From Candidatus Micrarchaeota archaeon (GTDB lineage Archaea > Micrarchaeota > Micrarchaeia > Anstonellales > Bilamarchaeaceae): a stretch of DNA of 64,000 nucleotides. The position numbers were made by a program, and so were the translations under genes. The stretch is taken from the NCBI GenBank assembly GCA_023129075.1, contig JAGMCT010000023.1, forward strand, positions 811 through 64,810, written 5' to 3'. Below the pieces are notes generated by a model. The model saw nothing but the letters and a program-made list of their open reading frames with translations. It did not search any database and was not told the DNA's origin. Below are positions 1,200 through 59,014 of this stretch, in pieces; the stretch's first letter is position 1, and each line of letters starts with the position of its first letter.

Positions 1200-1310
1200 T
1201 ATGCAAATTCGGGGGGTTATGATTAACCTACCTTCAAATTCCTTTTGGAATTTGGGGCATCGAAATCTGGAAGATTTCAATGAAGAGAAGGGGGGTGTCC
1301 CCCCTTCCTC

Positions 1311-2255
1311 TTGGAGAGGGATAATATGAAGGAAATAAATGAGATAATCAGGGATATAAAGGCAGTCAGGATACAGGGGGCAAGGAATGTTGCAAAGGCA
1401 GGAATCAGGGCGCTTATCATAACGGCAAAGAAAAGCAAAGCAACAGATAAAGAAGAACTGCACAGTGAATTAATAGAGGTTGCAAGAAAGGTCTCGGAAA
1501 CAAGGCCGACTGAGCCAATGCTGAGGAATATTCTTGAGGATGCATTAAGATTCGCAGCAATGGAGATAGCCTCTTCAAATGAGGATATTGAAAAAATAAA
1601 GGAAAATATTGTTGAGGAAGAAGAAAAATACCTTAGGAAAATGAGGAAGGGCGTGGAAAGAATATGGGAATATGGTGCAAAAGTACTTCCTACAGGAGGA
1701 AATATAATCACCCATTGCCATTCAAGCACAGTAACAGGAATATTCAAGAAAGCTTATGATATGGGTAAGGAATTCAAGGTTGTTGCATGCGAAACAAGGC
1801 CGTTGTATCAGGGAAGGATTACTGCAAAGGAACTGGCAAATTATGGGATAGATGTTACGCTTACGGTGGATATGGGGGTTTCCAGGTATATGAAAAAGGC
1901 AGATATGGTGATTGTAGGTGCTGATGCAATAACATCTATGGGGGACTTGATAAATAAAATAGGAACCTCTACCATTGCACGGATTGCAAGGATGAATGAT
2001 GTTTCATTTTTTTCAGCTGCAGAGACCTATAAATTTGACCCTTTGACGATATATGGGGTTAGGGAAAAGATAGAGGTTAGGGATTACAAGGAGGTTTGGG
2101 AAAAGAAGCCAAAGAACATAAAAATAGAGAATTATGCATTTGATGCAACAGCTTCTAGGTATATTAATGGGTATCTTACTGAGGTTGGTGTTCTTTCTCC
2201 GCAGTCTTTCTGGAGTTTTGCAATGAAGAAATTGGGTAAAGAGGTGGGGGTATGA
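1311..2255 (+). CDS. ribose-1,5-bisphosphate isomerase (eIF-2B alpha/beta/delta family)
   Basis: eIF2B-like fold motifs (GNIITHCHSSTV, VVACETRPLYQGR, VGADAI); overlaps the AMP phosphorylase gene by 4 bp, the archaeal AMP-salvage arrangement. Confidence 0.7.
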   Translation: MERDNMKEINEIIRDIKAVRIQGARNVAKAGIRALIITAKKSKATDKEELHSELIEVARKVSETRPTEPMLRNILEDALRFAAMEIASSNEDIEKIKENIVEEEEKYLRKMRKGVERIWEYGAKVLPTGGNIITHCHSSTVTGIFKKAYDMGKEFKVVACETRPLYQGRITAKELANYGIDVTLTVDMGVSRYMKKADMVIVGADAITSMGDLINKIGTSTIARIARMNDVSFFSAAETYKFDPLTIYGVREKIEVRDYKEVWEKKPKNIKIENYAFDATASRYINGYLTEVGVLSPQSFWSFAMKKLGKEVGV

Positions 2256-3904
2256 AGAAAAAACATAAAATTAAGAAAATCCTGAAAAGGAAAATCGTAA
2301 AAAAGAAAATCGTAAAAAAGAAGAATAAAAATATGAAGGAACTGAGCAGGGAGGAAATAGAAAAAAGAAAGAAAAAGGAAAAATTATGGGAAGAGCTTCC
2401 TCTTGTATGCAAGGCAAGGATTGTGGATATACATACAGGAAGGAAGATAGTTATTCTGCATGAGCAGGATGCAGAAGAAAACGAAATCCATGAAGGATAT
2501 AGAGTTGTGCTTAAGTACGGGAAAGAAAAGCATGTTGCTATAGTAAACCTTAGTTCTACCATTGTAAGGAAAGGAGAGATTGGAATATTCAGGGATATGG
2601 CGGGATTGCTGAAGGTGGGGGAAGGAAGAAAAATAAACATTCTGCACATGGAAAGACCGGCAAGCCTTGAATACATAAAAATGAAGATGGATGGTGAAGG
2701 TCTAAGCGAGGAAAGGGTAAAAATAATAATAGATGATTTGATGAGGAACAGGCTTGCAGAGCCTGATATTGCTATATGGATTAGTGCAATGTATATGAGA
2801 GGGATGGAAGAGAATGAGACCATTGCACTTACAAAAGCAATCGTTGAATCAGGGGATACGCTGGACTTGGACGCCAAACCTGTTGTGGACAAACACTGCA
2901 TCGGAGGAGTTGCAGGAAACAGAACAACAATGATTGTAGTTCCTATAATAGCAGCTGCGGGAATTTACATGCCAAAGACTTCTTCAAGGGCAATAACCTC
3001 TCCTTCCGGAACAGCAGATACAATGGAATGCCTTGCAAAAGTGAATTTTCAACTGAAGCAGCTCAGAAAAATGGTCAAGAAAGCAAGGGGGTGTGTAGTC
3101 TGGGGCGGAGGAATGAACATTGCACCGGCAGATGATAAGATGATAAAAATAAGGTATCCTTTAAGTTTGGACCCAAGAGGGGTTCTCCTTGCATCCATAC
3201 TTGCGAAAAAGAAGGCAGTGGGAGCCCAATATGTTGTTATAGACATACCTATTGGTAGGGGTGCAAAAATAGCAGACCCTGAAAAAGCAAAAGAACTAGG
3301 AAGGGATTTCATAAGAATGGGGAGCAAACTCGGGATGAATATGGAAGTTCTTATAACTGACGGGTCTGAGCCTATTGGAAATGGAATAGGGCCTGCGCTT
3401 GAAGCAAAGGACGTCCTTGAAGTATTAGAGGGGAATGGTCCTGAAGACCTTAGGAACAAATCCTGCTTAATAGCAGGTAGATTATTGGAAATGGTTGGGG
3501 AGGTAAAGCAGGGAGATGGTTACGACATGGCAAGTAAACTCGTAAATAACGGAAAGGCTTTGAAAAAGATGTATGAGATAATAAAAATGCAGGGCGGAAA
3601 ACCTCCAAATTCTGGAGATATACAATTCGGAAAACATAAATATGTTGTAAAGGCAAAAAGGAGCGGAAAGATAAGCCATATAGATAATAAAAAGATTTCA
3701 AAGATTGCAAGGGCTGCAGGAGCTCCAAGGGACAAGAAAGCAGGAATTTATCTCTACAGGCTGAAAGGAAACAAGGTGAAGAAGGGGGATATTTTGTTTG
3801 ATATTTATGCAGAAAGCAAGAACAGGTTGAATTTTGCACTTAAAGCGCTGGAGGTATGGCATCCAATAGAATTTGAAAAAATGCTTCTTGATGTGATGGG
3901 GTAA
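2252..3904 (+). CDS. AMP phosphorylase (archaeal thymidine-phosphorylase family)
   Basis: Glycosyl-transferase family 3 / pyrimidine-nucleoside phosphorylase motifs (HCIGGVAGNRTT, SSRAITSPSGTADTME). The lysine-rich N-terminal 27 aa may be absent; an alternative start lies near 2333. Confidence 0.75.
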   Translation: MKKKHKIKKILKRKIVKKKIVKKKNKNMKELSREEIEKRKKKEKLWEELPLVCKARIVDIHTGRKIVILHEQDAEENEIHEGYRVVLKYGKEKHVAIVNLSSTIVRKGEIGIFRDMAGLLKVGEGRKINILHMERPASLEYIKMKMDGEGLSEERVKIIIDDLMRNRLAEPDIAIWISAMYMRGMEENETIALTKAIVESGDTLDLDAKPVVDKHCIGGVAGNRTTMIVVPIIAAAGIYMPKTSSRAITSPSGTADTMECLAKVNFQLKQLRKMVKKARGCVVWGGGMNIAPADDKMIKIRYPLSLDPRGVLLASILAKKKAVGAQYVVIDIPIGRGAKIADPEKAKELGRDFIRMGSKLGMNMEVLITDGSEPIGNGIGPALEAKDVLEVLEGNGPEDLRNKSCLIAGRLLEMVGEVKQGDGYDMASKLVNNGKALKKMYEIIKMQGGKPPNSGDIQFGKHKYVVKAKRSGKISHIDNKKISKIARAAGAPRDKKAGIYLYRLKGNKVKKGDILFDIYAESKNRLNFALKALEVWHPIEFEKMLLDVMG

Positions 3905-3920
3905 AAAAAGAAAAAAAAGA

Positions 3921-4124
3921 TTATTGGAACTCTGGTTCAGGGAACTCGTCTTCAGTTAAATCAATCCCTAAATCCTGAATTTCCAAATCATCTAAGCTTA
4001 TGTCAAGAGGTTCGTTTACCTTTTTTTCCGTTACCTGTCCTTCCTCTTCAATCTCTTGTACCTGAGGACCGATACAACCAAAGAACAGCAAGGAAATCAT
4101 CAGTATGGTAATTATTGTTCTCAT
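3921..4124 (-). CDS. small secreted/lipoprotein-like acidic protein
   Basis: 67 aa; N-terminal hydrophobic signal ending FFGC, then an acidic tail; overlaps the upstream gene by 4 bp. Confidence 0.4.
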   Translation of the reverse strand: MRTIITILMISLLFFGCIGPQVQEIEEEGQVTEKKVNEPLDISLDDLEIQDLGIDLTEDEFPEPEFQ

Positions 4125-5011
4125 GCTTCCCCTCTTATCTCTTCTACTAAATCAACAAGCTTTTCCCTTGCCTCTCCAATCTTCGCTCTTGCTTCAAGTG
4201 CTTCCCCTGCATCATAGTATTCATCATCCCCTATAGATATCGCTTCATCTAAAAGGTCTTGAATCTCTTCCAGCTCGGTTTCATAACCTTCGGTTCTTTC
4301 CTGTATTCTTTCAAGGAAAAGATTCATTTTTTTATTGTTGAATTTGGCCCAGATGTGAAGATGTTTCATCCAGACATCTCTTCTTATTTCCAGTATATCC
4401 TCGTTTTCGTTGTCCACTGCATCCTGAAGGATTTCGGCATTTTCTTCTGCTTCTTCAAGAACATCCTCTATTTCTGAAACATCATAATCCCTTTCTTCCA
4501 TTGAATCTGTGGCGTTCTTTGCTACTTCCATCCAGTGTTCATGTTTTTCCAGTTCTCTTTCTGAGTTAGAAAACGCTGCGCTTCTGAAGCATACCTGAAG
4601 TTCGTCTTTCTTTTCATCAAAATCTGCCCTAATCTCAGCCATCATATCTGCTCTTTCCTGTCCCTTCAATCCGCTTCTAGCTTCTTTTCTCATGTCTCTT
4701 AAATATTCAGAGGTTTCTCTCCATACCTCTCTGAGGTCATCCATTGCCCCTCTAAAAGAGGATCGATCGTTATTCCCAACGGCGTCTGCAAGAACACCAA
4801 GTGAATCATCCAGTTGTTCCTTGTATTCATTTATCTCATCCTCGCTCGCATTCTCAACAAAATCAGGAACCGAATCAAGAAGAGAGCTCTGGAAAACCAC
4901 CCTGCACTCTGCCATATCATACCTGTGCGTCATTCCATAATCCCTGTAATCCCCAAAGAATCCTGCAAAGAGCATCCCAAGGGCCAACAAGCCTAGTAAC
5001 AATTTTTTCAT
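4121..5011 (-). CDS. secreted acidic alpha-helical protein of unknown function
   Basis: 296 aa; signal peptide MKKLLLGLLALGMLFAGFF; highly acidic E/D-rich body; strong six-frame ORF. Confidence 0.55.
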   Translation of the reverse strand: MKKLLLGLLALGMLFAGFFGDYRDYGMTHRYDMAECRVVFQSSLLDSVPDFVENASEDEINEYKEQLDDSLGVLADAVGNNDRSSFRGAMDDLREVWRETSEYLRDMRKEARSGLKGQERADMMAEIRADFDEKKDELQVCFRSAAFSNSERELEKHEHWMEVAKNATDSMEERDYDVSEIEDVLEEAEENAEILQDAVDNENEDILEIRRDVWMKHLHIWAKFNNKKMNLFLERIQERTEGYETELEEIQDLLDEAISIGDDEYYDAGEALEARAKIGEAREKLVDLVEEIRGEA

Positions 5012-5105
5012 TTAATCACCGAATACTTCTCAAACACCCTATTTAAATAAAAACTTTTCCAAAAGTTTTCAGAAAGTTTATAATCCTGTTGAAAGATAAT
5101 GAAAT

Positions 5106-5768
5106 ATGCGTTTTGTGTTTATTATGGTTTTGATTTTATGTATTGCCAATGCAGCCAATATACATGGAGAAGTATATGCAATAGATGGATTTGATAATCT
5201 AAACAACAGCATCATAAAAATAAGCGGAGAAGAGAACCATCAGCTGATGGTTAAAGAAGGGAACTACTCAATTGAGTTAAGAGAGGGGGAGTATGTTATT
5301 GAAGGTTTTTATTATGAAGAAGAGGAGCTTATTTATTATGCAAAATATGAATTGGAAGTTGGGGGTGAACCTCTAAGGTTTGATGTTGTTTTGTTTTCTG
5401 CGGAGATATTTGAGTATATTCCAACCATTTATATTGATGAAATTGAGTTGGATGAATTAGAAATAGAAGAGGAAACGGACTTTACATATGTGTGGGTTGG
5501 AATTGGAATCATTCTTATCTTATTTATTGTTCTGCTCCTGTTCAGAACCAAAAAGAAGAAAGCAAAACCCGAGGAATTGGACGAGGATTGTAAAACCGTG
5601 CTAAGGATTGTAAATGAGAATGAGGGGAGGATTACACAAAAGGAAATACGGGAGATATTAAACTGGTCGGACAGTAAACTAAGTCTGGTTGTAAGTGAGC
5701 TTGAACAATTAGAATTAATAAAAAGAATAAAAAAGGGAAGGAAGAATATAATTAAGGTGAGAAGATGA
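5106..5768 (+). CDS. membrane-anchored winged-helix transcriptional regulator
   Basis: Signal peptide, extracytoplasmic beta-rich domain, one TM helix (WVGIGIILILFIVLLLF), then a cytoplasmic wHTH (TVLRIVNENEGRITQKEIREILNWSDSKLSLVVSELEQLELIKR). Overlaps purP by 4 bp (ATGA). Confidence 0.55.
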   Translation: MRFVFIMVLILCIANAANIHGEVYAIDGFDNLNNSIIKISGEENHQLMVKEGNYSIELREGEYVIEGFYYEEEELIYYAKYELEVGGEPLRFDVVLFSAEIFEYIPTIYIDEIELDELEIEEETDFTYVWVGIGIILILFIVLLLFRTKKKKAKPEELDEDCKTVLRIVNENEGRITQKEIREILNWSDSKLSLVVSELEQLELIKRIKKGRKNIIKVRR

Positions 5769-6841
5769 AAATTTCTACTTTGGGAAGTCATTCTGCTTTG
5801 GATGTGAGTGAAGGGGCAAAAAAAGAAGGGTTTGGAACGCTTGTGGTGTGCAAAAAAGGAAGGGAAAGAACCTATGCAAAGCACTACAAAACCAGGGAAG
5901 TGAAAGGGGAAACCCTTGGGGTAGTTGATGAAATAATATTATTGGATGAATTTAGGGATATGGTAAAGGAAGAGGTGCAGGAAAAACTAAAGGGTTCTGT
6001 GTTTATTCCTAATCGTTCTTTTTCCGTGTATGTAGGTTATGATAATATAGAAAAAAATTTCAAGACGCCGATTTTTGGGAACAAATATCTCTTGAGGGCA
6101 GAGGAAAGGGATGTTCCAAACAACCAGTATGATTTGCTTGAGAAGGCAGGGGTTCCGCTTGCAAGAACCTTCAAACCTGAGGAGATAGATACACTGGCTT
6201 TGGTGAAGGTGCAGGAGGCAAAAAGAAACTATGAAAGGGCATTCTTCTTTGCTTCTTCTTATGGGGAATACCAAAAAAAATCGGAGGAGTTGATTTCTAA
6301 AGGAATCATAAAAAGAGAAGATTTGGAAAAGGCAAGAATAGAAGAGTTTATTCTTGGGGCGCAGTTTAATTTCAATTTCTTTTATTCTCCTTTGAGTGGG
6401 GAACTGGAACTGCTTGGGATAGATACAAGAAGGCAGACGAACCTGGATGGATTTTTGAGACTGCCCGCGGACGTACAGCTTGAAGCATTGAAATATAGGA
6501 GGGTGACTACTATTGAGACGGGACATATCTCAGCAACCCTGAGGGAATCTTTACTGGAGAAGGTGTTTAATATTGCAGAGCCGTTTGTGGAGACTGTAAA
6601 GAAATATTATCCAAAGGGGCTGATTGGGCCGTTTGCACTGCAGGGGGCAGTTGAGGAGAAGGATGGAAAGGAAAGGATTGTAATCTTTGATGTGAGTTTT
6701 AGGATGCCGGGAAGTCCGGGGACGAGATTTACTCCTTATTCTGAATACTTATATGGAAGAAGCGTGAGTTTTGGAAGAAGGGTTGCAATAGAGATTAAGA
6801 GAGGAATAGAGGAAGACAGGTTGGAAGAGATTATTTCTTAG
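5765..6841 (+). CDS. purP: 5-formaminoimidazole-4-carboxamide ribonucleotide synthetase (archaeal PurP, ATP-grasp)
   Basis: N-terminus ISTLGSHSALDVSEGAKKEGF resembles the conserved PurP N-terminus (IATLGSHTSL...GAK.EGF); ~358 aa ATP-grasp length. Confidence 0.7.
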   Translation: MKISTLGSHSALDVSEGAKKEGFGTLVVCKKGRERTYAKHYKTREVKGETLGVVDEIILLDEFRDMVKEEVQEKLKGSVFIPNRSFSVYVGYDNIEKNFKTPIFGNKYLLRAEERDVPNNQYDLLEKAGVPLARTFKPEEIDTLALVKVQEAKRNYERAFFFASSYGEYQKKSEELISKGIIKREDLEKARIEEFILGAQFNFNFFYSPLSGELELLGIDTRRQTNLDGFLRLPADVQLEALKYRRVTTIETGHISATLRESLLEKVFNIAEPFVETVKKYYPKGLIGPFALQGAVEEKDGKERIVIFDVSFRMPGSPGTRFTPYSEYLYGRSVSFGRRVAIEIKRGIEEDRLEEIIS

Positions 6842-6848
6842 GGGTAAA

Positions 6849-7007
6849 ATGTCTAACGTTTATGAAAAAGTAAACAATGTATGGAAATCTACCTGTAAGA
6901 TATTATTCAGGCAGGAAATAGGAGATGGATTTCCAGGCACGGTTAAGGGTTTCATCTACTTCTTTTTGCATATACAGAGATTAGGAATAAAGGGTTTTAA
7001 TCCTTAG
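6849..7007 (+). pseudogene. N-terminal remnant of the A/B paralog family (decayed copy)
   Basis: Translation MSNVYEKVNNVWKSTCKILFRQEIGDGF matches the conserved family N-terminus (YEKVNNVWKSTCRIIFGEEIGEL) for ~25 aa, then diverges and stops after 52 codons. Confidence 0.6.
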
Positions 7008-8784
7008 TCTTTTTTGGTTTTTCTTTTTCTGAGATTACTTCTTCTGGTTCCTTTACACGTTTCTTTCTCCAGTGCTTAAGGTCCACAGTTTTTACCTTCA
7101 TGGGGATGGTATATCGCTCGCCATCAAAAAATCTGGCAACGCATTCCCTAACTTTAAGATTAGTAAAGATGTTCTTTTTCTCTTCCTCAAGCTCGGAGGG
7201 GGCGATTTTCTTCCTAAAGAACTCCTCAACCTTCATGTCCATGATAGAACTGATATAACCTGCATCCTGCTTGCTCAGGCGGAATGCAACTACATTGTAA
7301 ACATTCGTAAGAATACTATCAAGGATTTCCTTTTGTATCTGCCCTAAATACTGAAGAGAAAGACAGAGAGAAAGATTGAACTTTCTGGTTTCAGAGAGAA
7401 TGTCCTTTACAACAAGGGTTTCAACAACCGGAAACTCATCAATAATAAGAATCGTGGGCTGATTGAGTTTGTGGGTAATTGCAAAGATATACATCTGCTG
7501 AATGATGGCTCCTGCAAGGAACTTAATCATTCTTCTGCCGAAGAAATGGGGGTCAAAGGAAATTATAGTAACGTCGTTTTTCTCTATAAGATCCATAAGA
7601 CGAACAACGTTCTTGTCCTTTCCTATATAAAGCTCATATTCGCTGACAAAGTTAAGGATTGGCAGAACAGCATCGTTGAAATGATGCAGATAGATATCAT
7701 CAAACTCAACGCTGAAGAACCTTTTTACTTCGTCGTTTTCAACCATACTGGCAAATTCCATCCTTTTTGAGGAATCAGTAAGCAATAGGTTTATGTTTTC
7801 CAGGCTTAGCATATTTAGTTCTGAAAGCAGATAAACTGCATAGAAGAGGATTCGCTCAGAATACTTATTCTGTTCTCCTATGACGGAAATCATTAGCTGG
7901 ACAATGAGCTGGGTAGTCATAGGGTTCTTTTCCCTTCCTATCTCAAGCGGCTCAATATAATCATTCTTAAAGTCTACAACCTTTCCTTCAATAAGCTTGG
8001 ATAATTCATTGTGGGGGTCTATAATCACAATTTTCTGACCCTTGTGCTTGGCTGAGATTGCCTTCACAAGCATTTCAAGAAGCTTGCTCTTTCCTGTTCC
8101 TGACATGCCAACGAACAAAGAATGCTTGAATACGTCAAAGTTCTCCACTCCTATTGTAGAACCATCAATCTCAAACAGGGGTTTTTCCGAATGCATGTGC
8201 ATGGTTTTCAGGAGAGGGTGGTCCAGCATCTCCATAAAAAAGGAGGGGTTCTTCTCTAAATCAATCTCAAAGAATTTCTCTGGATTGAGAAGAAATACTG
8301 ATTTTCTCCACCCATCCTCGTTAACTGCACTCCCCCATCCAAAAAGCTTTCCAAAGATAGGAAACGTGCGTATATTCAACTGTGTGATGCGCTGTTTTAC
8401 GAGGAAATCAAAAATGTTTAAATCCTTGAAGATATACAAACCAAACGGGATTCCTCCTTTTTTTATCTCATCAGTGTGTTTGCTCTCCCCTATGGGTCTG
8501 AATGGAAATATCAATGAACCGAGCTTCTTGAGTCTATCGTAGTCTCCTTTCAGAAACACCCTTACAGTATTTGCCTTTTTAAGAAAGACCATTTCAGTAG
8601 CTCTGAAGGGGAAAACAAGGCTGAAATCAAGAAAATCAAAACCAGGAACATCCCATTTAAGGAGAGTAGTGAGGAAACGGTTCCAATCGTTTATGGATAC
8701 CTTTGGGGAATAGAGGGAAAGTTCTATGGGGTTATCTTTTTTCCAGTTAAACATTTGTATCCACTTTCTAACATTCTTTTTCAC
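6997..8784 (-). CDS. P-loop ATPase of the FtsK/HerA superfamily (HerA/VirB4-like, DUF87-type)
   Basis: 595 aa; Walker A GMSGTGKSKLL at ~aa 228 and Walker B ILIIDEFP at ~aa 445, separated by a long insertion as in HerA; N-terminal ~220-aa domain. Same strand and immediately downstream of the split A|B pair. Confidence 0.6.
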   Translation of the reverse strand: MKKNVRKWIQMFNWKKDNPIELSLYSPKVSINDWNRFLTTLLKWDVPGFDFLDFSLVFPFRATEMVFLKKANTVRVFLKGDYDRLKKLGSLIFPFRPIGESKHTDEIKKGGIPFGLYIFKDLNIFDFLVKQRITQLNIRTFPIFGKLFGWGSAVNEDGWRKSVFLLNPEKFFEIDLEKNPSFFMEMLDHPLLKTMHMHSEKPLFEIDGSTIGVENFDVFKHSLFVGMSGTGKSKLLEMLVKAISAKHKGQKIVIIDPHNELSKLIEGKVVDFKNDYIEPLEIGREKNPMTTQLIVQLMISVIGEQNKYSERILFYAVYLLSELNMLSLENINLLLTDSSKRMEFASMVENDEVKRFFSVEFDDIYLHHFNDAVLPILNFVSEYELYIGKDKNVVRLMDLIEKNDVTIISFDPHFFGRRMIKFLAGAIIQQMYIFAITHKLNQPTILIIDEFPVVETLVVKDILSETRKFNLSLCLSLQYLGQIQKEILDSILTNVYNVVAFRLSKQDAGYISSIMDMKVEEFFRKKIAPSELEEEKKNIFTNLKVRECVARFFDGERYTIPMKVKTVDLKHWRKKRVKEPEEVISEKEKPKKTKD

Positions 8785-8849
8785 TTATAATAAGGAGTAA
8801 GAATGTTTTTAAATATATGCTTATTTACATAGAAAAACATAAAAAACAC

Positions 8850-9623
8850 CTATACCGTCTGTTCACTGCTGGTATTGAATATATCCGTCTCAAAACCCCC
8901 TTTCTTTTCCAAGGACTTTATTATGCCATCAACAAGAATCTTTCGCACCCTTTGGTAAGCGTCCCTTCCTACTTCAACGTTTCCAACGGCATATTTGAGA
9001 TTTTTTGCGTTGGAACAAAATAAGGCATCATGTACATTTTCACAGTTATGGCAGAAGTAAGCATTGGTGCTGTCTTTAACAGAATCGCATTCAAATGCAA
9101 CAGTTGCACGTACGCAATTATAGCAGTTGATGCAGAACTTTGAATAGAAAACCCGGAATGAACCGAATATGAATTCTGAGTATTTGGTGTATGAACTATA
9201 TGCTATATTCTTTGAGTTGAATGCATCGTTTGCTCTGTATGTGTTTACAGTATCCTCAAGCCCCATGGTTTCAGTATTATTCTTGTTCTTTCCAACCTGC
9301 ACATCTACATTGAAATAAGCAATTTCAGGGATTTCCTGCAGAAGTTCGTTGAGGGTCATGTTTTCCTTCAGTTCCTTGATCTTTATCTCACTTGCCTTTG
9401 TTTCTCCTTCGTAAAAGGAAACGATTTTCTCTTTTGGTATGAGCTCAAGGAATCTGTACTGCTTTATTAAACGGATATTTTCTCCGGTGAGTTTTGTTTT
9501 TATGTTTTCCCCCTCTCCAATATGTTGTCTCAGCCATCCCTCATATTCATCTAAAGGAGTGAGTTCTTTTCCGAATAGAAGTTTTGTTGTAGTTGAGAGG
9601 GCATTTTCTACTTCTTGATTCAT
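8850..9623 (-). CDS. paralog family protein, single B-type module
   Basis: 257 aa. N-terminal motif ALSTTTKLLFGKELTPLDEYEGWL; C-terminal Cys-rich block CINCYNCVRATVAFECDS...YFCHNCENVHDALFCSNAKNLKYAVGN. Overlaps the upstream A-module gene by 4 bp. Confidence 0.7.
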   Translation of the reverse strand: MNQEVENALSTTTKLLFGKELTPLDEYEGWLRQHIGEGENIKTKLTGENIRLIKQYRFLELIPKEKIVSFYEGETKASEIKIKELKENMTLNELLQEIPEIAYFNVDVQVGKNKNNTETMGLEDTVNTYRANDAFNSKNIAYSSYTKYSEFIFGSFRVFYSKFCINCYNCVRATVAFECDSVKDSTNAYFCHNCENVHDALFCSNAKNLKYAVGNVEVGRDAYQRVRKILVDGIIKSLEKKGGFETDIFNTSSEQTV

Positions 9624-10375
9624 GGTTGAACCCCCTTGGCTATTTTAAATATTGTTGGAAATGACTTTTTCTTCTGCATTATCTCTGCCACTTCTTCCAA
9701 AAGCTTTTCCTTTAAGGAAAGGTATTTCTCTCTTTGGAGCTCTATGTTCCCTATCATATGTTGTTTATTCTTCTGATTAAATGAAAATAGGCACTCCCTG
9801 CAGTTACCCATATGCCAGCTGAAGTACAAGTCCGATGAGGAATTTGAATAACCTGTCTGGAAAAGCCTTGTTGACCTATAATTATGGTACCCCCTTATTA
9901 TTGAATTTGTAAAGGCCGAATAGGTTGAACCAAATATGAATTTTGAACTTAGTAAGATGTTAGAATATGCTGCATACTGAGAATCATAAATAGCATTTGA
10001 TTCAAATACAAAACCAGCATCCATAGACCCATCCGATGCATTAACTTCTATGCACCTCCCAAGATTTTTGTCTCCGCAGTAGAAAAAAGTATCCTTTATG
10101 CAATCAAGCAGGGAATCAATATCTTTTATGGCATTTATATCGAGGGTCGGCTTCTTGAGTCTTTCCAATTCCGCATAAGAAATAAATCTTCCTTCTTTAG
10201 GATATTCAGAATAGTACAAGTAGATGTCTTTTCCCGAGATTGAGGAGGTTCTTTTTGTAATGGGTTCTGCTGTGGACGTTAGATATGTTTTGAACTCCTC
10301 CAGACTTCCGAGCTCTTGTTTGAATAAAGTTCTGCACGTTGAGCGAAATGCAGAATCCAATTTCTGGTTGAACAT
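9620..10375 (-). CDS. paralog family protein, single A-type module
   Basis: 251 aa with the A-module motifs FRSTCRTLFKQELGSLEEFKTYL, SGKDIY, IKDIDSLLD, YAAYSN, SSSDLYFSWHMGNCRECLFSFNQKNKQHMIGNIEL and KLLEEV. Confidence 0.7.
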   Translation of the reverse strand: MFNQKLDSAFRSTCRTLFKQELGSLEEFKTYLTSTAEPITKRTSSISGKDIYLYYSEYPKEGRFISYAELERLKKPTLDINAIKDIDSLLDCIKDTFFYCGDKNLGRCIEVNASDGSMDAGFVFESNAIYDSQYAAYSNILLSSKFIFGSTYSAFTNSIIRGYHNYRSTRLFQTGYSNSSSDLYFSWHMGNCRECLFSFNQKNKQHMIGNIELQREKYLSLKEKLLEEVAEIMQKKKSFPTIFKIAKGVQP

Positions 10376-10499: not shown

Positions 10500-12080
10500 A
10501 TGCAGAATTCTATTGCATACAATAAGATAAACGAAGCCTGGAAGGATTCCTGCAGGGTTATCTTTGGAAAAGAATTGGGGGATTTGAAGGAATACAAGGA
10601 ATGGCTTTCCATGGACATGGAATCCATGAATACAAAAAAATCAATGGTTTCAGGTAAAGATGTTTGCTGCGCAGTTCCCCATTATTGCGAGGGTGCCAAA
10701 TTTATCTCTCTGGATGAGGTGGACTTTAACAAAAGGTTTGAGCCGTTGAATATAAATGAGATAAAGGACATAGATTCTATTGTTGAAGCATTACAAGAGA
10801 GGTTTTATTATACTGGAAATGTTATACTGGCAAATTCAAGGTTTGTTGAGGAAAGCTCCAACATCTCCAATTCATTCTACATGTTTCATTCAAACTATGC
10901 ATCTGACTCAAAATATGCTGCATATTCATCATATCTTAGGTATTCAAAGTGCATGTTTGGTGTGAATGAAGATGCTCTGTCTTCCTTCGTAATAAGGGGG
11001 TTTGACCTTCACAGGGTGAGTAGAGGTTTTGAGGTGTGGAGAACATTTAGCTCAAATGATTGTTATTATACATATGGAGTGGAGGACTGCAACAATGTCT
11101 TATTTTCATTCAATACAAAGAGCAAGAAATACGTTATTGGAAATCTTGAATTAAGCAGAGAAAAATTCGCATCTCTCAAAAAGAAGTTGTTGGGGGAAAT
11201 AATTGATGGGTTGGAAGGAAAAAAAACGGCTCCTTCCCTAATGGATTTTATTCCAAAAGACCTGGAAAAAACCAGAGCTCCGAAAGTAGAAACCAGAATA
11301 ATGAAAAAAGATGAGAACAAGGAATTGATAGAAGAGGCGTTCAGAAGAACAACAAAGATTGTTTTTGGAAAAGAACTCACAGAGATTGATAGATATGGAG
11401 AATGGCTGGCAGAGAACATGCCCGGAGTTACAACTGTTGAATCTGCTGTAAGCGAAAGCCCTGTTTACCTAGGCTTATATGTTCCTTATACTCACTTACC
11501 CAAAGAGAGGCTGGTCAAAGAAGCAGAAAGCAAAAAACTTGGGGAGATAGTGAAGTTAGAAGAAAGTGAAATAGGTTCAATAGAAGAAATAAAGAAATCC
11601 CTGCAGAAGATTGCGTTCTTTACCCCTGAAACCAGAATGGGAGATAATGCTAACCTGATTTACGCAGCAGTAGTTGCTAGATCAGTAAACTGCTATAAAG
11701 GGGCTCTTTTTGCTTACAATGAAAATTGTGCCTTCTCGTTCTGGTCCAGGAACTCTAAATATATGTTTGGGTCAGCTTTAGCATTTTCCTCTCATTCGTG
11801 CATTAGGTGTTACAATTCTCTGAATCTGTCAAGGTGTTTTGAGACGGATGGTTCAAGCAATTCCTCTGATTTGTATTTTTGTCATAATTGTGAGAACGTG
11901 CAGAATTCTATGTTTACTTTTAATACAAAGAACTTGAAGAATGCTATCGGGAATGCTCCTCTTTCCTTGGAGGATTATAAGAAGGTTAAAGGAAACTTAT
12001 TGGAGCAGATTATAGGTGAAATAGAAGAGAAGGGATCATTAAAATGGAGTATATATAATATTGGGTGTGAAAAAGATTAG
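10500..12080 (+). CDS. paralog family protein, fused A-B two-module form
   Basis: 526 aa. The N half matches the A module (AWKDSCRVIFGKELGDLKEYKEWL...CNNVLFSFNTKSKKYVIGNLEL) and the C half the B module (CIRCYNSLNLSRCFETDGSSNSSDLYFCHNCENVQNSMFTFNTKNLKNAIGNA...KWSIYNIGC). Confidence 0.75.
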   Translation: MQNSIAYNKINEAWKDSCRVIFGKELGDLKEYKEWLSMDMESMNTKKSMVSGKDVCCAVPHYCEGAKFISLDEVDFNKRFEPLNINEIKDIDSIVEALQERFYYTGNVILANSRFVEESSNISNSFYMFHSNYASDSKYAAYSSYLRYSKCMFGVNEDALSSFVIRGFDLHRVSRGFEVWRTFSSNDCYYTYGVEDCNNVLFSFNTKSKKYVIGNLELSREKFASLKKKLLGEIIDGLEGKKTAPSLMDFIPKDLEKTRAPKVETRIMKKDENKELIEEAFRRTTKIVFGKELTEIDRYGEWLAENMPGVTTVESAVSESPVYLGLYVPYTHLPKERLVKEAESKKLGEIVKLEESEIGSIEEIKKSLQKIAFFTPETRMGDNANLIYAAVVARSVNCYKGALFAYNENCAFSFWSRNSKYMFGSALAFSSHSCIRCYNSLNLSRCFETDGSSNSSDLYFCHNCENVQNSMFTFNTKNLKNAIGNAPLSLEDYKKVKGNLLEQIIGEIEEKGSLKWSIYNIGCEKD

Positions 12081-12124: not shown

Positions 12125-13696
12125 ATGGAAGAATCGCCTCTTTATGAAAAAGTGAATAACGTATGGAAATCTACTTGTAGAATAATATTTGGAGAAGAGA
12201 TAGGAGAGCTAAAGGAATATGAGAAATGGTTGTCAGAATACAGAGAACCTTTCCTAAAGAAAAAATCAGCAATCTCGGGAAAGGATGTTTATTGCTCAAA
12301 TACTCAATATTGTGGAGATGCAAAATTCATTTCCTTAAATGAGATAGATTTTAATAAAAAGTTTGAGCCTCTGAGTATAAATGAGGTAAAGGATATTGAT
12401 AGTATTGTTGAAGGGTTGCAGGAGAGATTTCATTACTGTGGGAATATAAAACTAGGGAATTCTCAATTTGTGGAGAGGAGTAGCAATGTGTTCAATTCAA
12501 ACTATGTCTCATCGTCAACTACAATATTTGATTCCAACTACATATCAAACTCAAGCAGGATAAGAGTTTCAAAAACCCTTTTTGGATGCTATTTCGTAGG
12601 AGAAAGTAATTCAAACATAAGAATTTATTCTGGGTGGAGACTAAGTCGTTCATTTGAAAGCTATGAAGCATGCGAAGGAAACGATGTTATTTATTCAGCA
12701 AACGTTGTTGGGTGTTCCGAGTGTATGTTTTCAATAGGACTAAGAGGAAAAAAGTACGTAATAGGAAACAGAGAACTAGAAAAAGATACATATGCGAAAA
12801 TAAAAGAGAAGCTCATAGGAGAAATAAAAGATGAATTAGAGAAAGAAAAAAGAATATTCTCATTCATAGACATAATAAAAACAGCTCAAGCAGACACAAT
12901 AAGTTCTAGCGAAGAAAAAAAAGGGATTGTTGATAAAGAAACAATAGAAAAAGCATATAGAAAAACACTTTCAGTCGTGCTGCAATGTAAGACTAGTAAG
13001 AATATTGACCACTATAAAAATTTTCTAATGAAAAATGTTCCGGAATACATAGAGAAAAGAAAAAGTACTATAAGCAATAGAGGGTTTTTCACAGTTGTAG
13101 AATCACTACATAAAAAACTACCTAAGGAAGTATTTGTAGAATTCAATGAGAGTCAGGAAATGGCTAAGAACAGAAAACTAAACAATGATGATATAAAAAA
13201 TCTTGAGAGTATAATAACCAACATCAAAAAAATAGCATTTATTAATTTTGACTACAGAGACAGTAGGTCAGAAAATATGATTGAAACTCCTTCCTATCAA
13301 AATTCAAAAAACGCTTATCATGTTGCATATGCATATGGAGTAAAAAACTCTGCTTTTTCTCAATGGCCACGAAACAGTGAATACATGTTCGGTACATCAG
13401 AAACACTCCACTCATTATTTTGTATTAATTGTTACTTCTCAAGAGATTTGGCAAGAGCATTTGAAGTTGATTCTTCAAGGAAATGTTCTGATGTTTACTA
13501 TTCTCATAACTGTGAAAATGTACATGATTCTATGTTCTGTTTTAATAAGAAAAACATAAGAAATGGAATAGGAAATGCTGAGTATGGGAAGGATGAATAT
13601 CTTAGAATAAAGAGTTCATTGTTGGAACAGATTGTAAATGAGCTTGAACAGAAGGAGAATTTAAAATGGAACATCTATAATATTGGTTGTGGCTAA
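12125..13696 (+). CDS. paralog family protein, fused A-B two-module form
   Basis: 523 aa with the same A-B architecture. The N-terminal ~110 aa are near-identical to the next gene; C-terminal motifs include CINCYFSRDLARAFEVDSSRKCSDVYYSHNCENVHDSMFCFNKKNIRNGIGNA and KWNIYNIGCG. Confidence 0.75.
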   Translation: MEESPLYEKVNNVWKSTCRIIFGEEIGELKEYEKWLSEYREPFLKKKSAISGKDVYCSNTQYCGDAKFISLNEIDFNKKFEPLSINEVKDIDSIVEGLQERFHYCGNIKLGNSQFVERSSNVFNSNYVSSSTTIFDSNYISNSSRIRVSKTLFGCYFVGESNSNIRIYSGWRLSRSFESYEACEGNDVIYSANVVGCSECMFSIGLRGKKYVIGNRELEKDTYAKIKEKLIGEIKDELEKEKRIFSFIDIIKTAQADTISSSEEKKGIVDKETIEKAYRKTLSVVLQCKTSKNIDHYKNFLMKNVPEYIEKRKSTISNRGFFTVVESLHKKLPKEVFVEFNESQEMAKNRKLNNDDIKNLESIITNIKKIAFINFDYRDSRSENMIETPSYQNSKNAYHVAYAYGVKNSAFSQWPRNSEYMFGTSETLHSLFCINCYFSRDLARAFEVDSSRKCSDVYYSHNCENVHDSMFCFNKKNIRNGIGNAEYGKDEYLRIKSSLLEQIVNELEQKENLKWNIYNIGCG

Positions 13697-15256
13697 ATGA
13701 CGACTAAAGTATATGAAAAGCTAAATAATGTATGGAAATCTACATGTAGAATTATATTCGGGGATGAGATAGGAGAACTAAAGGAATATGAGAAATGGCT
13801 ATCTGAATACAGAGAACCTTTCCTAAAGAAAAAATCAGCAATCTCGGGAAAGGATGTTTATTGTTCTACGCCTCATTATTGCGAGGGTGCCAAATTTGTT
13901 TCTTTGGATGAAGTGGACTTTAACAAAAAGTTTGAGCCTCTGAGTATAAATGAGGTAAAGGATATTGATAGTATTGTTGAGGGGTTGCAGGAGAGATTTT
14001 ACTACACAGGAAATGTAACACTACAAAATTCCAAGTTTGTTGAGGGAAGTTCAGATATTATTAATTCTCATTTTGTTCTGAATTCAAACTTTATTGCTGA
14101 TTCGCAATATATTGCTTATACGTCGGAAATCAGGTTTTCTAAGTATTTATTCGGCGTTAGTTGCTGTGCTTATTTCAACAATGTAATTAGAGGGACTGGT
14201 TTTAATACCTCAAATTCTTTGGAGAGCTGGTTAACGTGGGAGTCAAACGGTTGTTATTATACAATCAATGTGAGGGGTTGTACAGATATAATGTTTTCAT
14301 TTGGTTTAACCGGAAAGAGAAACATGATTGGGAATTTACAACTGTCAAAAGAAGAATATTATAAGACAAAAGAAAAATTATTAGAACAGCTAAGAGACGA
14401 ATTAATAAAAAATAAAAGATTGCCAGGAATTTTTGAACTTGCAATAGGTGAACCTCCTAAAGTTGAGGGAATAACAAGAGGAAATGTTGAAGAAACAGAT
14501 CTTGCACCAATAGAAAATGCATTCAAAACAACAACAAAAATGATCCTAGGAAAAGAACTAGAAAACATAGATAATTACAAAGATTGGTTATTGAGAAATA
14601 CTATAGGTGTCCAAGAGATCCCTTCAGCGATAACCGGAGAACCCACCTATCTTGAAGATCTTATACCTTACACTCTTGTTCCTAAGGATAGGGTAGTGAA
14701 TGATAAAGAATCGTTTAAAGCATCTGAGATACTTAAGATAAAAGAAGTAACAGAAGATTTGAGGGAATTAAAGGAAAGATTCGGACGAATAATTTTATAT
14801 CCTGTACAAACTGAAGGACAGGAGAATAAAAATGTTACAAAAACCGCGGCAACAAGAAATTGTGTGGATTGTTATTATGGTTCCATTTATATAGAAAACG
14901 AAAAGTGCGCTTATTCATTCTGGCCTAGGAATTCAAAATACATATTTGGTTCATCAATGGCCTTCTCATCAAATTCATGTGTTAATTGTTATTCATCTTC
15001 AAACATCTCTAGATGCTTTGAGGTGGATGGTTGTAGTAATTCTGCAGGCTTGTACTTCTCCCATAATTGTGAAAATGTACATGATTCAATGTTTACTTTT
15101 AATGCAAAGAATCTAAGGTACTCAATAGGAAACGCAACTTATTCTCCAGACCAATATAACAAAATAAAATATTCCATATTAGAACAGATAACGAATGAAT
15201 TAGAAGAGAGGAAGGACTTGAAATGGAATATCTATAATATTGGTTGTGGAAAATAA
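13697..15256 (+). CDS. paralog family protein, fused A-B two-module form (mosaic copy)
   Basis: 519 aa with A-B architecture. DNA stretches of 50+ nt are identical to the 12125 copy, and others nearly identical to the 10500 copy (e.g. cattattgcgagggtgccaaatt...gtggactttaacaaaa), indicating gene conversion. Confidence 0.75.
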   Translation: MTTKVYEKLNNVWKSTCRIIFGDEIGELKEYEKWLSEYREPFLKKKSAISGKDVYCSTPHYCEGAKFVSLDEVDFNKKFEPLSINEVKDIDSIVEGLQERFYYTGNVTLQNSKFVEGSSDIINSHFVLNSNFIADSQYIAYTSEIRFSKYLFGVSCCAYFNNVIRGTGFNTSNSLESWLTWESNGCYYTINVRGCTDIMFSFGLTGKRNMIGNLQLSKEEYYKTKEKLLEQLRDELIKNKRLPGIFELAIGEPPKVEGITRGNVEETDLAPIENAFKTTTKMILGKELENIDNYKDWLLRNTIGVQEIPSAITGEPTYLEDLIPYTLVPKDRVVNDKESFKASEILKIKEVTEDLRELKERFGRIILYPVQTEGQENKNVTKTAATRNCVDCYYGSIYIENEKCAYSFWPRNSKYIFGSSMAFSSNSCVNCYSSSNISRCFEVDGCSNSAGLYFSHNCENVHDSMFTFNAKNLRYSIGNATYSPDQYNKIKYSILEQITNELEERKDLKWNIYNIGCGK

Positions 15257-15259
15257 TAA

Positions 15260-16870
15260 TCACTTGCATCCAATATTGTAAATATCGTATTTTAAGGTTT
15301 TGTTCTTTTCCAATTCTGAGGAGATTTGCTCTAGTAAAGAGGACTTTATTTTTCTATATTCATCAGGAGAAAGTTTGGAATTGCCGATTGCATGCTTCAG
15401 ATTTTTTACATTGAAGCAGAACATTCCATCCTGAACTGCTTCGCAATTGTGAGAAAAGTAGATGTCTGAACAGTCCCTAGAGCTGTCAACCTCAAAACAT
15501 CTGGAAAGTTTGCTTGAATTATATACATTTATGCAAAATAAAGAGTCATGAACCGTATCAACACCAAACATATTCTCAGATCTTACCGGCCAAAAGGAAT
15601 ACCCGCAGTTTTTTGCACGTAGTGGCGCTCCACACCTATAACTGTTGCTTGAATAGCCCACCATCACACATTCTGGAATATTTGAGTTCTGCAATTTTAG
15701 TTCGGTAGAAACATATCCTATATCAGCGATTATATCATGTGCTTTCTCCAGCGAAAGATTATTTACGTCATTTTTATCCGCTTTAAGGTATTTGCCTGCC
15801 AATTGGCCTTCTTCTATACGAATTATCCTGTTATGCGGGAATTTGTCAAATACTGAATAATGTACAAGACCTGATTCCTTTCCTGAAATTACTGAGGGCA
15901 GTATCTCAATTGGTTTTACATGCCTGTACAGAAAATCTGAGTAATCCTCCATAGATCCGATCGGTCTGCCAAACACTACTTTGCAGGTATCCTCAAACTG
16001 GTCCTGTACAACTGAAATGTCAGTTTCAGGGTCATCATATTTAGTTTCTGCAGTAATCTTTGAAAATACATTCTTTAATTCATCAGATTTTACCCTGGAA
16101 TTGTACAGATAATCAAGCAATCCCAGGCATTTCCTATCCTTAACCAGTTTAGCTCTTATTTCTTCAAGCAAAGATTCCTTTATTTTCATGTATTGGGATT
16201 TTTCAAGTTCTAAATTGCCTATTGTGTATTTCTTATTCTTCAGATTAAATGAAAAAATACAATCCTGACAGCCGTTAATATTCATTACATAATAACAATC
16301 CGAACAGGTATGGCTTTCATAGAATTCAAAACAGCGACTGGACCATGTAGATTCCATCGCCATTATATTAAATTTGGATTCTCCTATTCCATTTCCCCCG
16401 AAAATTCTTTCGGAGGAACGCGCCATCTTGACATGGGCCATATAGATTGAATCAAGTATGTTGAGCGAATCCAGAATGAAACTTGAGTTATGTATATCCG
16501 AGCTGTCAGAAACGAATCTTGAGTTTCCAAGAATAATATTGCCCGCATACACAAATCTTTCCTGTAGTGATTCAACTAGAGAATCAATATCTTTTATTTC
16601 ATTTATGTTCAAAGGTTCAAATTTCCTGCTATAATCTATTTCGCCTAAATCCATGAATCTTGCTGAGGGGCAATAATCGCCCTGTGCCGGAAATACTGTT
16701 TTATTTGAAATATGTGATTTTTCAGACCTCATGGCACCCGGATATTCAGATAAGTAAGCTGAAAACTCATCTAATTCACCCACCTCACCTCTTAGGACAA
16801 TCCTGCAAGTGGATTTCCATTCCTTATTAAGAGAATTGTAAACTTCGGGGTTCATGGTTTTCCTCTGCAA
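15260..16870 (-). CDS. paralog family protein, fused A-B two-module form
   Basis: 536 aa with N motifs EWKSTCRIVLRGEVGELDEF and IKDIDSLVESLQERF, C motifs CINVYNSSKLSRCFEVDSSRDCSDIYFSHNCEAVQDGMFCFNVKNLKHAIGNS and KYDIYNIGCK. Co-oriented with the upstream methyltransferase-like gene. Confidence 0.75.
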   Translation of the reverse strand: MQRKTMNPEVYNSLNKEWKSTCRIVLRGEVGELDEFSAYLSEYPGAMRSEKSHISNKTVFPAQGDYCPSARFMDLGEIDYSRKFEPLNINEIKDIDSLVESLQERFVYAGNIILGNSRFVSDSSDIHNSSFILDSLNILDSIYMAHVKMARSSERIFGGNGIGESKFNIMAMESTWSSRCFEFYESHTCSDCYYVMNINGCQDCIFSFNLKNKKYTIGNLELEKSQYMKIKESLLEEIRAKLVKDRKCLGLLDYLYNSRVKSDELKNVFSKITAETKYDDPETDISVVQDQFEDTCKVVFGRPIGSMEDYSDFLYRHVKPIEILPSVISGKESGLVHYSVFDKFPHNRIIRIEEGQLAGKYLKADKNDVNNLSLEKAHDIIADIGYVSTELKLQNSNIPECVMVGYSSNSYRCGAPLRAKNCGYSFWPVRSENMFGVDTVHDSLFCINVYNSSKLSRCFEVDSSRDCSDIYFSHNCEAVQDGMFCFNVKNLKHAIGNSKLSPDEYRKIKSSLLEQISSELEKNKTLKYDIYNIGCK

Positions 16871-16936: not shown

Positions 16937-17683
16937 TTAACCATTATTCTTTGCTACAAGAATTAATCTTTTGTTTTTTTGATGTTTCTTATCTGGTGAG
17001 TCAAACGTTTCTTTTTCTATTATTTTATATCCTATTTCTCTAATAGTTTTAAGTATTTCAGGTATGCTTTTAGGTCTTCTATCCGAAAAGAAAGCTGGCA
17101 GACCGTAATCAACAACATTATTAATGAAAATTAAACCATCTTTCTTGATAAATTCTTTAAGTACCATCAAAAATAGCTTGTAATCGATGTAATTAAGAAC
17201 ATGTGAAACAACAACAGAATCAAAAGAAATTTTCTTCAAATGCAATTTTTTGAAGGCTTTTTGTGTTTCCAATTTAAGTTTCAGGAAAGAATTTCCTTCA
17301 ATTTGATTTAAATCACAAAATATGGGGTAAACAGAATCTTTCTTATATTTGTTATTATGGTACTTCAAAACATGGTAATCATTTTCCCAGTAAAAAATTT
17401 GGGAATTAGGGAATTCTTCCGGAGTGACCAAAGGGTTAAAGAAAGGCCCAACTTCAAGAATAATATTCCCCATGTTTTTCCTATATTTTTTTAGAAATGG
17501 TGAAAGCATCTGGCTGCCAGTTATCATTCTTTTTCTTGCTTCAATATCAAAATCCCCTCCATGGGGATTCTCTTCTAACGGCCAACCAGGCCAGTTGTAA
17601 ATTTTGAAATCATCCATGGATAGAACTAAACAAATCTGATATATAAAAGTTTCGGGATATTGAAGAGAGTCAAGTGAAACCAA
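16937..17683 (-). CDS. class I SAM-methyltransferase-like protein with a degenerate motif I
   Basis: 248 aa. ILEVGPFFNP aligns with MTase motif I (hhDhGxGxG) but lacks the glycines; FDSVVVSHVLNYI matches the post-II/III acidic motif of class I MTases. Confidence 0.4.
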   Translation of the reverse strand: MVSLDSLQYPETFIYQICLVLSMDDFKIYNWPGWPLEENPHGGDFDIEARKRMITGSQMLSPFLKKYRKNMGNIILEVGPFFNPLVTPEEFPNSQIFYWENDYHVLKYHNNKYKKDSVYPIFCDLNQIEGNSFLKLKLETQKAFKKLHLKKISFDSVVVSHVLNYIDYKLFLMVLKEFIKKDGLIFINNVVDYGLPAFFSDRRPKSIPEILKTIREIGYKIIEKETFDSPDKKHQKNKRLILVAKNNG

Positions 17684-58305: not shown

Positions 58306-58320
58306 TCATATCACCAATAA

Positions 58321-58965: not shown

Positions 58966-59014
58966 ATTACAAGTTTAAAATTCTTTCTTTTTTCTTAACT
59001 GAACAGAATTCTCT

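Follow-up and report, generated by a model that had tools for sequence, protein, structure and literature searches.

It is by their partners that the ring-forming ATPases of the FtsK-HerA superfamily are understood, be it NurA, the channels of type IV secretion systems (T4SS), Sir2 and other defence effectors, or capsids. What, then, does such an ATPase do in an archaeal genome where it lies within an island of paralogous genes that belong to no named family? This question is raised by the gene at positions 6997..8784 (minus strand) in a stretch of 64,000 nucleotides from a Candidatus Micrarchaeota archaeon (contig JAGMCT010000023.1), which we refer to as the window. Its product is a soluble P-loop NTPase of 595 aa with a VirD4/HerA-like core and belongs to a family found across the Micrarchaeota. 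We show that, in two domains of life, genes for this kind of soluble FtsK-HerA NTPase are linked to genes for a protein with a predicted β-solenoid module. The reading that we favour, at a probability of roughly 45%, is that the ATPase is a hexameric motor which carries a dimer of solenoid proteins as its adaptor and probably acts on DNA; the mechanism is our inference.

Linkage of the ATPase to a solenoid protein family

The open reading frame (ORF) at 6997-8784 comprises 595 codons and begins with GTG. It is a real gene, since an identical 595-aa protein is recorded in the database as 'DUF87 domain-containing protein, Candidatus Micrarchaeota archaeon', its homologs fill more than 250 clusters (46-73% identity over about 93% of the length), and its Pfam scores lie above their cut-offs. 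All named homologs come from Micrarchaeota-type DPANN archaea, and the ATPase is a conserved, single-copy-type gene of the Micrarchaeota. The ATG at residue 11 (nt 8754) may be its true start because the alignments of homologs begin approximately there.

The preliminary description of this DNA, made from the sequence without database searches, had placed the ATPase within a paralog island. The location was right, but the island was taken as background, whereas the adjacency turns out to be conserved phylum-wide and in bacterial relatives. Directly upstream of the ATPase lies a C-type half-module gene of 257 aa (8850..9623, minus strand; hmmsearch E 1.8e-75, HMM positions 272-526), preceded by an N-type half-module gene of 251 aa (9620..10375, minus strand; E 1.3e-77, HMM positions 6-251) that overlaps it by 4 nt. 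By BLASTP the 257-aa protein is 32-38% identical to the C-halves of the 520-aa paralogs and 44% identical to its ortholog L001_249; the 251-aa protein shares 35-38% with the N-halves and 40% with its ortholog L001_250. Four fused paralogs follow, one N+C fusion of 526 aa at 10500..12080 (plus), one of 523 aa at 12125..13696 (plus), one of 519 aa at 13697..15256 (plus) and one of 536 aa at 15260..16870 (minus), each of these proteins of about 520 aa being an internal duplication of one module of about 255 aa. On the other side of the ATPase, a 52-codon ORF (MSNVYEKVNNVWKSTCKILFRQEIGD...) at 6849..7007 (plus) is evidently what is left of the 5' end of a paralog of the fused type, with 26 initial aa that match the family N-terminus (hmmsearch i-E 3.6e-07). 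It overlaps the stop codon of the ATPase, which points to an earlier rearrangement or deletion at this place. In all, the partners in the window amount to one split pair plus four fusions and a relic. In a neighbour-joining (NJ) tree of the paralogs the split pair clusters with other ATPase-adjacent split pairs; the tree is star-like with long branches, and it shows old clades but is unreliable for counting fusion events. As to annotation, a protein-database search did not return the exact sequence of the 526-aa paralog, while its neighbours KAW38_04865 and KAW38_04870 were returned, and the source record may lack an annotation for this paralog or have a different gene call.

The partner module of about 250 aa is predicted to consist of N-terminal helices, a small α/β part, a Ser/Asn/Cys-rich β-solenoid built from repeats of about 20 residues, and a long C-terminal helix. 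An AlphaFold2 (AF2) model of the 526-aa paralog, with a mean predicted local distance difference test score (pLDDT) of 81.8 and a predicted template modelling score of 0.82, displays the same layout twice, with the two modules packed together and each composed of N-terminal helices, a small α/β part, a region of coil and short strands, and a long helix. C-type modules carry an invariant cluster of polar residues (R445, E448, D450, D457, H462, N463, E465 and K477). The family counts about 400 clusters, all 'hypothetical', all from Micrarchaeota-type metagenome-assembled genomes (MAGs) and all devoid of Pfam domains, and its members form old orthologous clades with 40-55% identity across the phylum. 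Searches of Pfam, NCBIfam, PADLOC and PHROG gave no match (Pfam at E<=1 only noise), nor did BFVD or a profile search of PDB sequences, and a comparison with PDB folds gave no convincing relative. Signal peptides and transmembrane segments are absent from the partner proteins as well. In their repetitive core and predicted solenoid they resemble CsgA, ice-binding proteins, left-handed β-helix acyltransferases and bactofilin. They differ from these in being unrelated by sequence to all Pfam and PDB entries, and in features of their own: an N-terminal helical and α/β part, a long helix at the C-terminus, and an organisation in which two modules are obligate. The coexistence of 250+250-aa and 520-aa forms also brought to mind single- and double-jelly-roll capsid proteins served by an FtsK-type packaging ATPase. 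We rejected this idea on the basis of the helices-plus-solenoid fold, the lack of viral matches and the core-gene-like context.

Scanning the GTDB species representatives yielded 73 ATPase loci, all from Micrarchaeota, and in 58 of them at least one member of the partner family lies within the available flank. When the scan is restricted to the 43 loci flanked by 3 kb or more on either side, a member is found within 150 bp in 30, within 10 kb in seven more, and in none of the remaining six. Linkage was seen in all five Micrarchaeota loci inspected by hand. In one MAG, whose ATPase is 51% identical to that of the window, the gene is followed by a pair of 250 and 249 aa, 40-44% identical to the orthologs in the window pair; in Anstonella stagnisolia and two other genomes the ATPase borders on arrays that range from 3 to more than 10 partner genes, and in the GTDB scan amplification reaches 8 genes per locus. 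Wherever the genes are split, the N-type one comes before the C-type one, as seen in 35 adjacent pairs; fusions account for 104 genes. In the Micrarchaeota, the partner has been duplicated into N-type and C-type genes, repeatedly fused to about 520 aa, and amplified into arrays. One Micrarchaeia MAG, SO_2017_LW4_49, holds two copies of the ATPase (L007, L008), each followed by its own split N/C pair.

Conserved neighbours in the 73 loci include no membrane channel, pilin, nuclease, NurA, VirB4, relaxase, capsid, or mad, dpt or methylase gene. The sole recurring additions are helix-turn-helix (HTH) regulators, of the HTH_10 type in 20 loci and of a double AsnC type in 16. HTH and winged-helix regulators (HTH_10, TrmB, double AsnC-type, DUF7343) are found within or beside the paralog arrays, for example in L004, and in the window at 5106-5768 and 32175-33128; it is possible that they are dedicated to the arrays. 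The gene for PurP adjoins the ATPase in five related loci as it does in the window, a case of conserved synteny among close relatives.

Some Micrarchaeota loci (L001, L003, L005) adjoin cdc6/orc1 together with sepF, or ftsZ together with a HhH-GPD glycosylase. Such neighbours, along with the long terminal helices of the partners, which could mediate polymerisation, allow for a scenario in which the solenoids form a polymeric scaffold, similar to bactofilin or curli, that the ATPase assembles, disassembles or remodels, possibly in connection with cell division. The division genes are not conserved across the loci, and FtsK-HerA ATPases are not known to remodel protein polymers. We consider this scenario quite unlikely.

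An exhaustive profile search for further relatives of the ATPase returned 113 representatives at E<=1e-30. The top 12 or so are the Micrarchaeota family itself, and behind them stands a second tier of about 90 proteins of 546-740 aa, whose matches often start at about position 50 and often cover most of the N-terminal domain. We examined the genomic context of six of them. Four contigs are clearly bacterial, judging by dnaG, rpoD, polA, the genes for Pol III alpha and delta, gatCAB and uvrB. One of these four, L080, is assigned to Saccharibacteria, as its NDK shares a 90% cluster with a named protein of that group; L083 is too short to assign and has no informative neighbours, and L084 carries a MerR regulator. 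In all six loci the ATPase is immediately followed by a single-module protein of 230-240 aa with no Pfam match, the sixth being cut by the end of the contig. These proteins match the Micrarchaeota module with hmmsearch E values of 1e-18 to 1e-37, and an hhalign comparison of the two partner families spans 235 columns end to end at 99.7% probability (E 6e-26). The bacterial partner family comprises more than 700 clusters, all unnamed, and the clusters of the bacterial ATPase are likewise without names. An NJ tree rooted on more distant proteins resembling type IV coupling proteins (T4CPs) shows the Micrarchaeota ATPases and the second tier as two sister clades, a topology compatible with either direction of any transfer between the domains.

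The ATPase is therefore genetically linked to the partner family of the paralog island, and its location is not incidental, a conclusion in which our confidence is high. A search of the literature on Micrarchaeota DUF87 proteins, on HerA/FtsK of DPANN archaea and on Micrarchaeota paralogs associated with an ATPase found nothing relevant.

Affiliation of the ATPase

Which kind of ATPase has been joined to this family? Its Walker A motif, GMSGTGKSKLL, occupies aa 226-236 (nt 8077..8109, minus strand), with G226, S228, G229, G231 and K232 invariant in 42 homologs. The Walker B motif, LIIDEFP, lies at aa 446-452 (nt 7429..7449, minus strand) and is followed by E465-x-R467-K468 and Q478, all invariant in the same set. 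The stretch after Walker B aligns with the 'EGRKF...STQRP' of defence HerAs, with the 'RP' of TQRP changed to YL. An AF2 monomer model built on the 42 homologs (pLDDT 84.4) finds its structural relatives in TrwB, VirB4, HerA and DptH, with TrwB and DotL as strong matches; the closest ones are DNA translocases or DNA-processing motors. Between the two Walker motifs the model contains an all-helical insertion at aa ~281-387 (nt 7624..7944, minus strand), whose helices 288-302, 307-322, 328-336, 338-347, 351-367 and 369-387 are predicted with pLDDT above 90. Of what defines the FtsK-HerA superfamily, the sequence and the monomer model show Walker A and B on a RecA-like core, structural similarity, and basic and Gln residues after Walker B.

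The profile evidence places the protein in the same region of the superfamily. The Pfam domain DUF87 ('HerA central domain') reaches 36.5 bits against a cut-off of 23.2, with a match confined to aa 217-282, and TrwB_AAD_bind is marginal at 22.5 bits against 20.5. Both exceed their cut-offs in all 42 homologs, with a best E value of 3.6e-12 for TrwB_AAD_bind, and FtsK_SpoIIIE matches weakly in 29 of them. In NCBIfam the best match is CedD (NF053655), with 39.1 bits against a cut-off of 600; EccC scores below it, and TraD (TIGR02759; 25.2 bits vs 521) and VirB4 (TIGR00929; 18.7 vs 643) also fall far short. Matches in PHROG are confined to the P-loop, including one to a terminase, or concern families without assigned function. 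The protein has no transmembrane segment: the highest mean Kyte-Doolittle value over 19 residues is 1.52 and falls on the strand of Walker B.

The N-terminal domain (aa 1-215, nt 8140..8784, minus strand) is specific to the family. In the AF2 model it is a mixed α/β structure in which helices 31-42, 82-91 and 124-130 are interleaved with strands. Five isolated N-terminal domains, three from Micrarchaeota and two bacterial, gave no Pfam match of any kind at E<=1, and HAS-barrel is absent from the Pfam families matched by the 42 family members.

Much of what the preliminary description had read from the letters is borne out by these results. Both Walker motifs that it named are present, 220 aa apart for an estimated ~215, and the N-terminal domain that it put at ~220 aa measures about 215 residues ahead of the P-loop domain. 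The assignment to the FtsK/HerA superfamily is backed by the DUF87 and TrwB_AAD_bind scores and by the relatives of the AF2 model. Of its 'HerA-like insertion' the helical insertion remains and the specificity to HerA does not, since TrwB, HerA and VirB4 all have one at this place. Its suggestion of a HAS-barrel finds no support in the N-terminal searches and the mixed α/β model. A narrower affiliation with HerA is likewise not supported, the best curated matches being instead the VirD4-like CedD (39 bits vs 600) and the PADLOC model mad8. In the profile comparison that it proposed, DUF87 lies above its cut-off and VirB4 stays at 18.7 bits against 643, with no adjacent conjugative genes in the scanned ORFs. 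Across the 40 ORFs of the window that were scanned, its statement that NurA, Mre11/Rad50, conjugation and capsid genes are missing nearby proves right. The same is true of its conclusion that this is no HerA-NurA repair, T4SS or viral packaging context, as such genes occur neither in the scanned ORFs nor among the conserved neighbours.

Comparison with known systems shows why no single family takes the protein in. With the T4CPs VirD4 and TrwB it shares the FtsK-HerA nucleotide-binding domain with an all-helical insertion, as well as the TrwB_AAD_bind signature. In contrast to them, it lacks an N-terminal membrane anchor, has no T4SS, Ced/Ted, relaxase or pilin genes conserved nearby, bears its own soluble N-terminal domain of about 215 aa, and has a dedicated β-solenoid partner that is found with no described T4CP. 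In CedD the P-loop lies at the same relative position. CedD is the VirD4-like ATPase of a DNA-import system in Sulfolobales, and some of its orthologs are without a transmembrane domain (PMC11823120). The C-terminal ATPase of VirB4 is set apart by its profile score and by the VirB4 N-terminal domain, which is missing here, as are neighbouring genes for VirB3, VirB6 and VirB8. Viral A32/FtsK packaging ATPases are distinguished by capsid and integrase genes, of which there are none, the surroundings being of the housekeeping kind. FtsK/SpoIIIE translocases have a Pfam FtsK_SpoIIIE domain, a membrane anchor and a gamma domain, and the window ATPase does not show this combination. The core belongs in the VirB4/VirD4/HerA/DptH part of the superfamily without fitting any single family, and by the defining features of those families the protein is not a HerA, VirD4/CedD, VirB4, FtsK or defence HerA. 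What is new in this variation on the FtsK-HerA theme are the N-terminal domain and the conserved, amplifiable partner family.

Could the protein nevertheless be a plain HerA/FtsK ATPase for repair or segregation, or a conjugative or viral remnant, with the paralogs adjacent by chance? The DUF87 match, the weak FtsK_SpoIIIE matches and the terminase among the PHROG matches would agree with this. The linkage in 37 of the 43 full-flank archaeal loci and in all six sister-clade loci speaks against it. So do the absence of a detectable HAS-barrel, the lack of NurA, Mre11 and Rad50 as well as of integrase, capsid, relaxase and VirB4 genes in the scanned ORFs, a composition free of anomalies, and partners without any BFVD or PHROG match. 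Such an ordinary explanation is highly improbable.

Closer at hand is a role in defence. HerA and the defence HerAs (Sir2-HerA, DUF4297-HerA, HerA-DUF, TdpAB and DptH) share with the window protein the ATPase core, the helical insertion and the RK...Q after Walker B. Their design, a ring ATPase with a docked oligomeric partner encoded by two genes, offers the closest functional analogy. The two genes here would then serve against viruses or plasmids in the manner of HerA/DptH systems: the ring would scan nucleic acid, the solenoids would sense or effect, and the array would provide different specificities. The only full-domain match in PADLOC, and the best in any library, is in fact mad8 (E 3.5e-14, aa 220-518), and the two-gene layout of a HerA plus effector is typical of such systems. 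The text of the MADS preprint has no domain annotation for mad8. The nearest PDB sequences to the family profile are defence HerAs, at E ~1e-4 and at the level of the P-loop, to which the matches of the PADLOC HerA models are also limited. Against this stand a HerA_antiphage score in NCBIfam of 19.2 bits for a cut-off of 800, a family without a detectable HAS-barrel, and a partner that is neither NurA, Sir2, DUF4297 nor another known effector and matches no PADLOC model. No mad, dpt or methylase partner is conserved nearby. Moreover, the ATPase behaves like a core gene rather than a patchily distributed island gene: all 73 loci are Micrarchaeota, with about 50% identity and partly conserved synteny (purP, cdc6/sepF), and the bacterial pair sits among housekeeping genes. 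We regard a defence function as unlikely.

A proposed motor with a solenoid adaptor

We thus return to the motor-adaptor reading. By analogy with its structural relatives TrwB, VirB4, HerA and DptH, the ATPase would form a hexameric ring motor. The solenoid protein would act as a dimer, as a homodimer in bacteria and as an N/C heterodimer or fused pseudo-dimer in Micrarchaeota; this is suggested by the single gene of the former, the ordered N/C pair or fusion of the latter, and the compact two-module model. The dimer would dock on the ring, probably on the face of the N-terminal domain, as an adaptor or effector, comparable to NurA, Sir2 or DUF4297 on HerA or to the adaptors on DotL. What passes through the ring is most likely DNA, which we propose tentatively in view of the DNA motors among the structural relatives, the K/R-rich tails of most orthologs, the uvrB, dnaG and polA neighbours in bacteria, and the cdc6/sepF or HhH-GPD glycosylase genes beside some archaeal loci. 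A paralog array would provide one motor with several interchangeable adaptors.

Two of these points deserve a closer look. Orthologous ATPases mostly carry a disordered C-terminal extension of 100-400 aa in which a strongly acidic part rich in E, G and D leads up to a final K/R-rich segment resembling a histone tail (P0002-P0006, P0106 and others). As for the bacterial neighbours, in L079 the pair is preceded on its own strand by uvrB at a distance of 35 bp, in L081 it is divergent from dnaG-rpoD, and L082 has a divergent polA, with dnaG-rpoD downstream.

Several observations weigh against the proposal. The window ATPase has only about 25 residues where its orthologs have the long basic tail, and the DNA-metabolism neighbours could be due to chance in small, gene-dense genomes. 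The partner contains no recognisable nuclease, DNA-binding or enzymatic domain. Six of the 43 full-flank Micrarchaeota loci lack a partner within 10 kb, and of the six sister-clade contigs a single one is assigned to a taxon, the rest being judged only from their neighbouring genes. Finally, the spacer at 8785-8849, between the 257-aa gene and the ATPase, has T-runs immediately behind the stop codon, and ATATATTTAAAAA precedes the GTG by about 30 nt; from its sequence, the spacer looks like an archaeal terminator followed by the TATA box of a leaderless ATPase transcript. Because of this TATA-like box and these T-runs, the ATPase may have its own promoter and be transcribed apart from the split pair.

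The likeness to coupling proteins opens another path. In this scenario the ATPase is a receptor similar to a T4CP, and the solenoids are its cargo: effectors without a signal peptide that are passed on to a putative envelope channel and delivered into host cells, with the array as an effector repertoire. TrwB_AAD_bind, TraG-D_C and CedD are among the best profile matches, and TrwB and DotL are strong structural ones. The partners have neither signal peptide nor transmembrane segment, their fused forms end in a moderately conserved C-terminal tail ('..lkwdIynig'), and the family is amplified to up to 8 genes per locus. Furthermore, both lineages are host-dependent ultra-small cells, and the T4SS of Patescibacteria is essential (PMC12102498, PMC12857230). 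On the other hand, the ATPase has no membrane anchor, and channel, VirB4, VirB6 and pilin genes are not conserved neighbours in the 73 loci. Partners that are 40-55% identical phylum-wide and form old orthologous clades are unlike fast-evolving effectors, and in bacteria the strict 1:1 pairing of closely spaced genes suggests a stoichiometric relation. A T4CP homolog of Southlakia, which may belong to this family, has been reported as non-essential for epibiotic growth. On balance, we find it rather unlikely that the solenoids are cargo.

The bacterial sister clade connects the motor-adaptor proposal to a puzzle in the literature. A 2025 survey counted 5,713 VirD4-type T4CP homologs in 2,918 Patescibacteria genomes, of which only 148 lie near virB4 (PMC12102498), and the function of those far from virB4 is explicitly considered open (PMC12102498). 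The Pfam signature that these orphan T4CP homologs should have is present in the second tier, whose members may correspond to the surveyed genes. Neither a T4SS cluster (virB4, virB6, relaxase) nor a Ced/Ted locus occurs among the neighbours in the six sister-clade loci. It is conceivable, if doubtful, that ATPase and solenoid are a previously unrecognised two-component machine common to two unrelated groups of very small cells that depend on hosts, the candidate phyla radiation (CPR/Patescibacteria) and the DPANN Micrarchaeota. This machine would be the 'orphan T4CP' of Patescibacteria, and Micrarchaeota would have expanded its partners into a repertoire, of adaptors or secreted effectors, for host cells or foreign DNA. 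If true, this would add a new class of FtsK-HerA systems, linked to an episymbiotic lifestyle.

Irrespective of the mechanism, the pairing offers a handle on the multi-copy 'hypothetical proteins' of about 520 aa in Micrarchaeota and on the T4CP-like genes of Patescibacteria that lie far from virB4. Saccharibacteria are now cultivable and genetically tractable, and the hypothesis of a motor-solenoid complex is therefore directly testable. The series of split genes, heterodimer and fusion in Micrarchaeota would also illustrate, in a clear natural case, the evolution of a homodimeric adaptor.

Surroundings in the window

The remainder of the window fits an archaeal chromosome, with genes for PurP, AMP phosphorylase, ribose-1,5-bisphosphate isomerase, threonyl-tRNA synthetase, aIF2-alpha, aRF1 and tRNA-splicing endonuclease, and five tRNAs. 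The nucleotide-salvage genes form a cluster at 234-6841 that comprises an AIR-synthase-like protein, ribose-1,5-bisphosphate isomerase, AMP phosphorylase and PurP. The paralog island is closed by a 248-aa ORF at 16937-17683 (minus) with no Pfam match. Directly after the threonyl-tRNA synthetase gene, a 510-aa protein at 19633-21165 (plus) contains a RelA/SpoT synthetase domain (PF04607, 53.7 bits) and resembles alarmone synthetases.

Large ORFs without a Pfam match are found at 24054-26147 (minus, 697 aa), 49957-51558 (plus, 533 aa) and 51564-52520 (plus, 318 aa); a search with the family profile showed that the one of 533 aa does not belong to the paralogs. The only secretion-type gene in the scanned ORFs encodes a T2SSF platform protein of pili or archaella at 59015-60598, about 50 kb from the ATPase. 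It adjoins a 635-aa ORF with no Pfam match and a 214-aa ORF, and the whole segment at 56398-60598 (minus) may be a type IV pilus-like locus.

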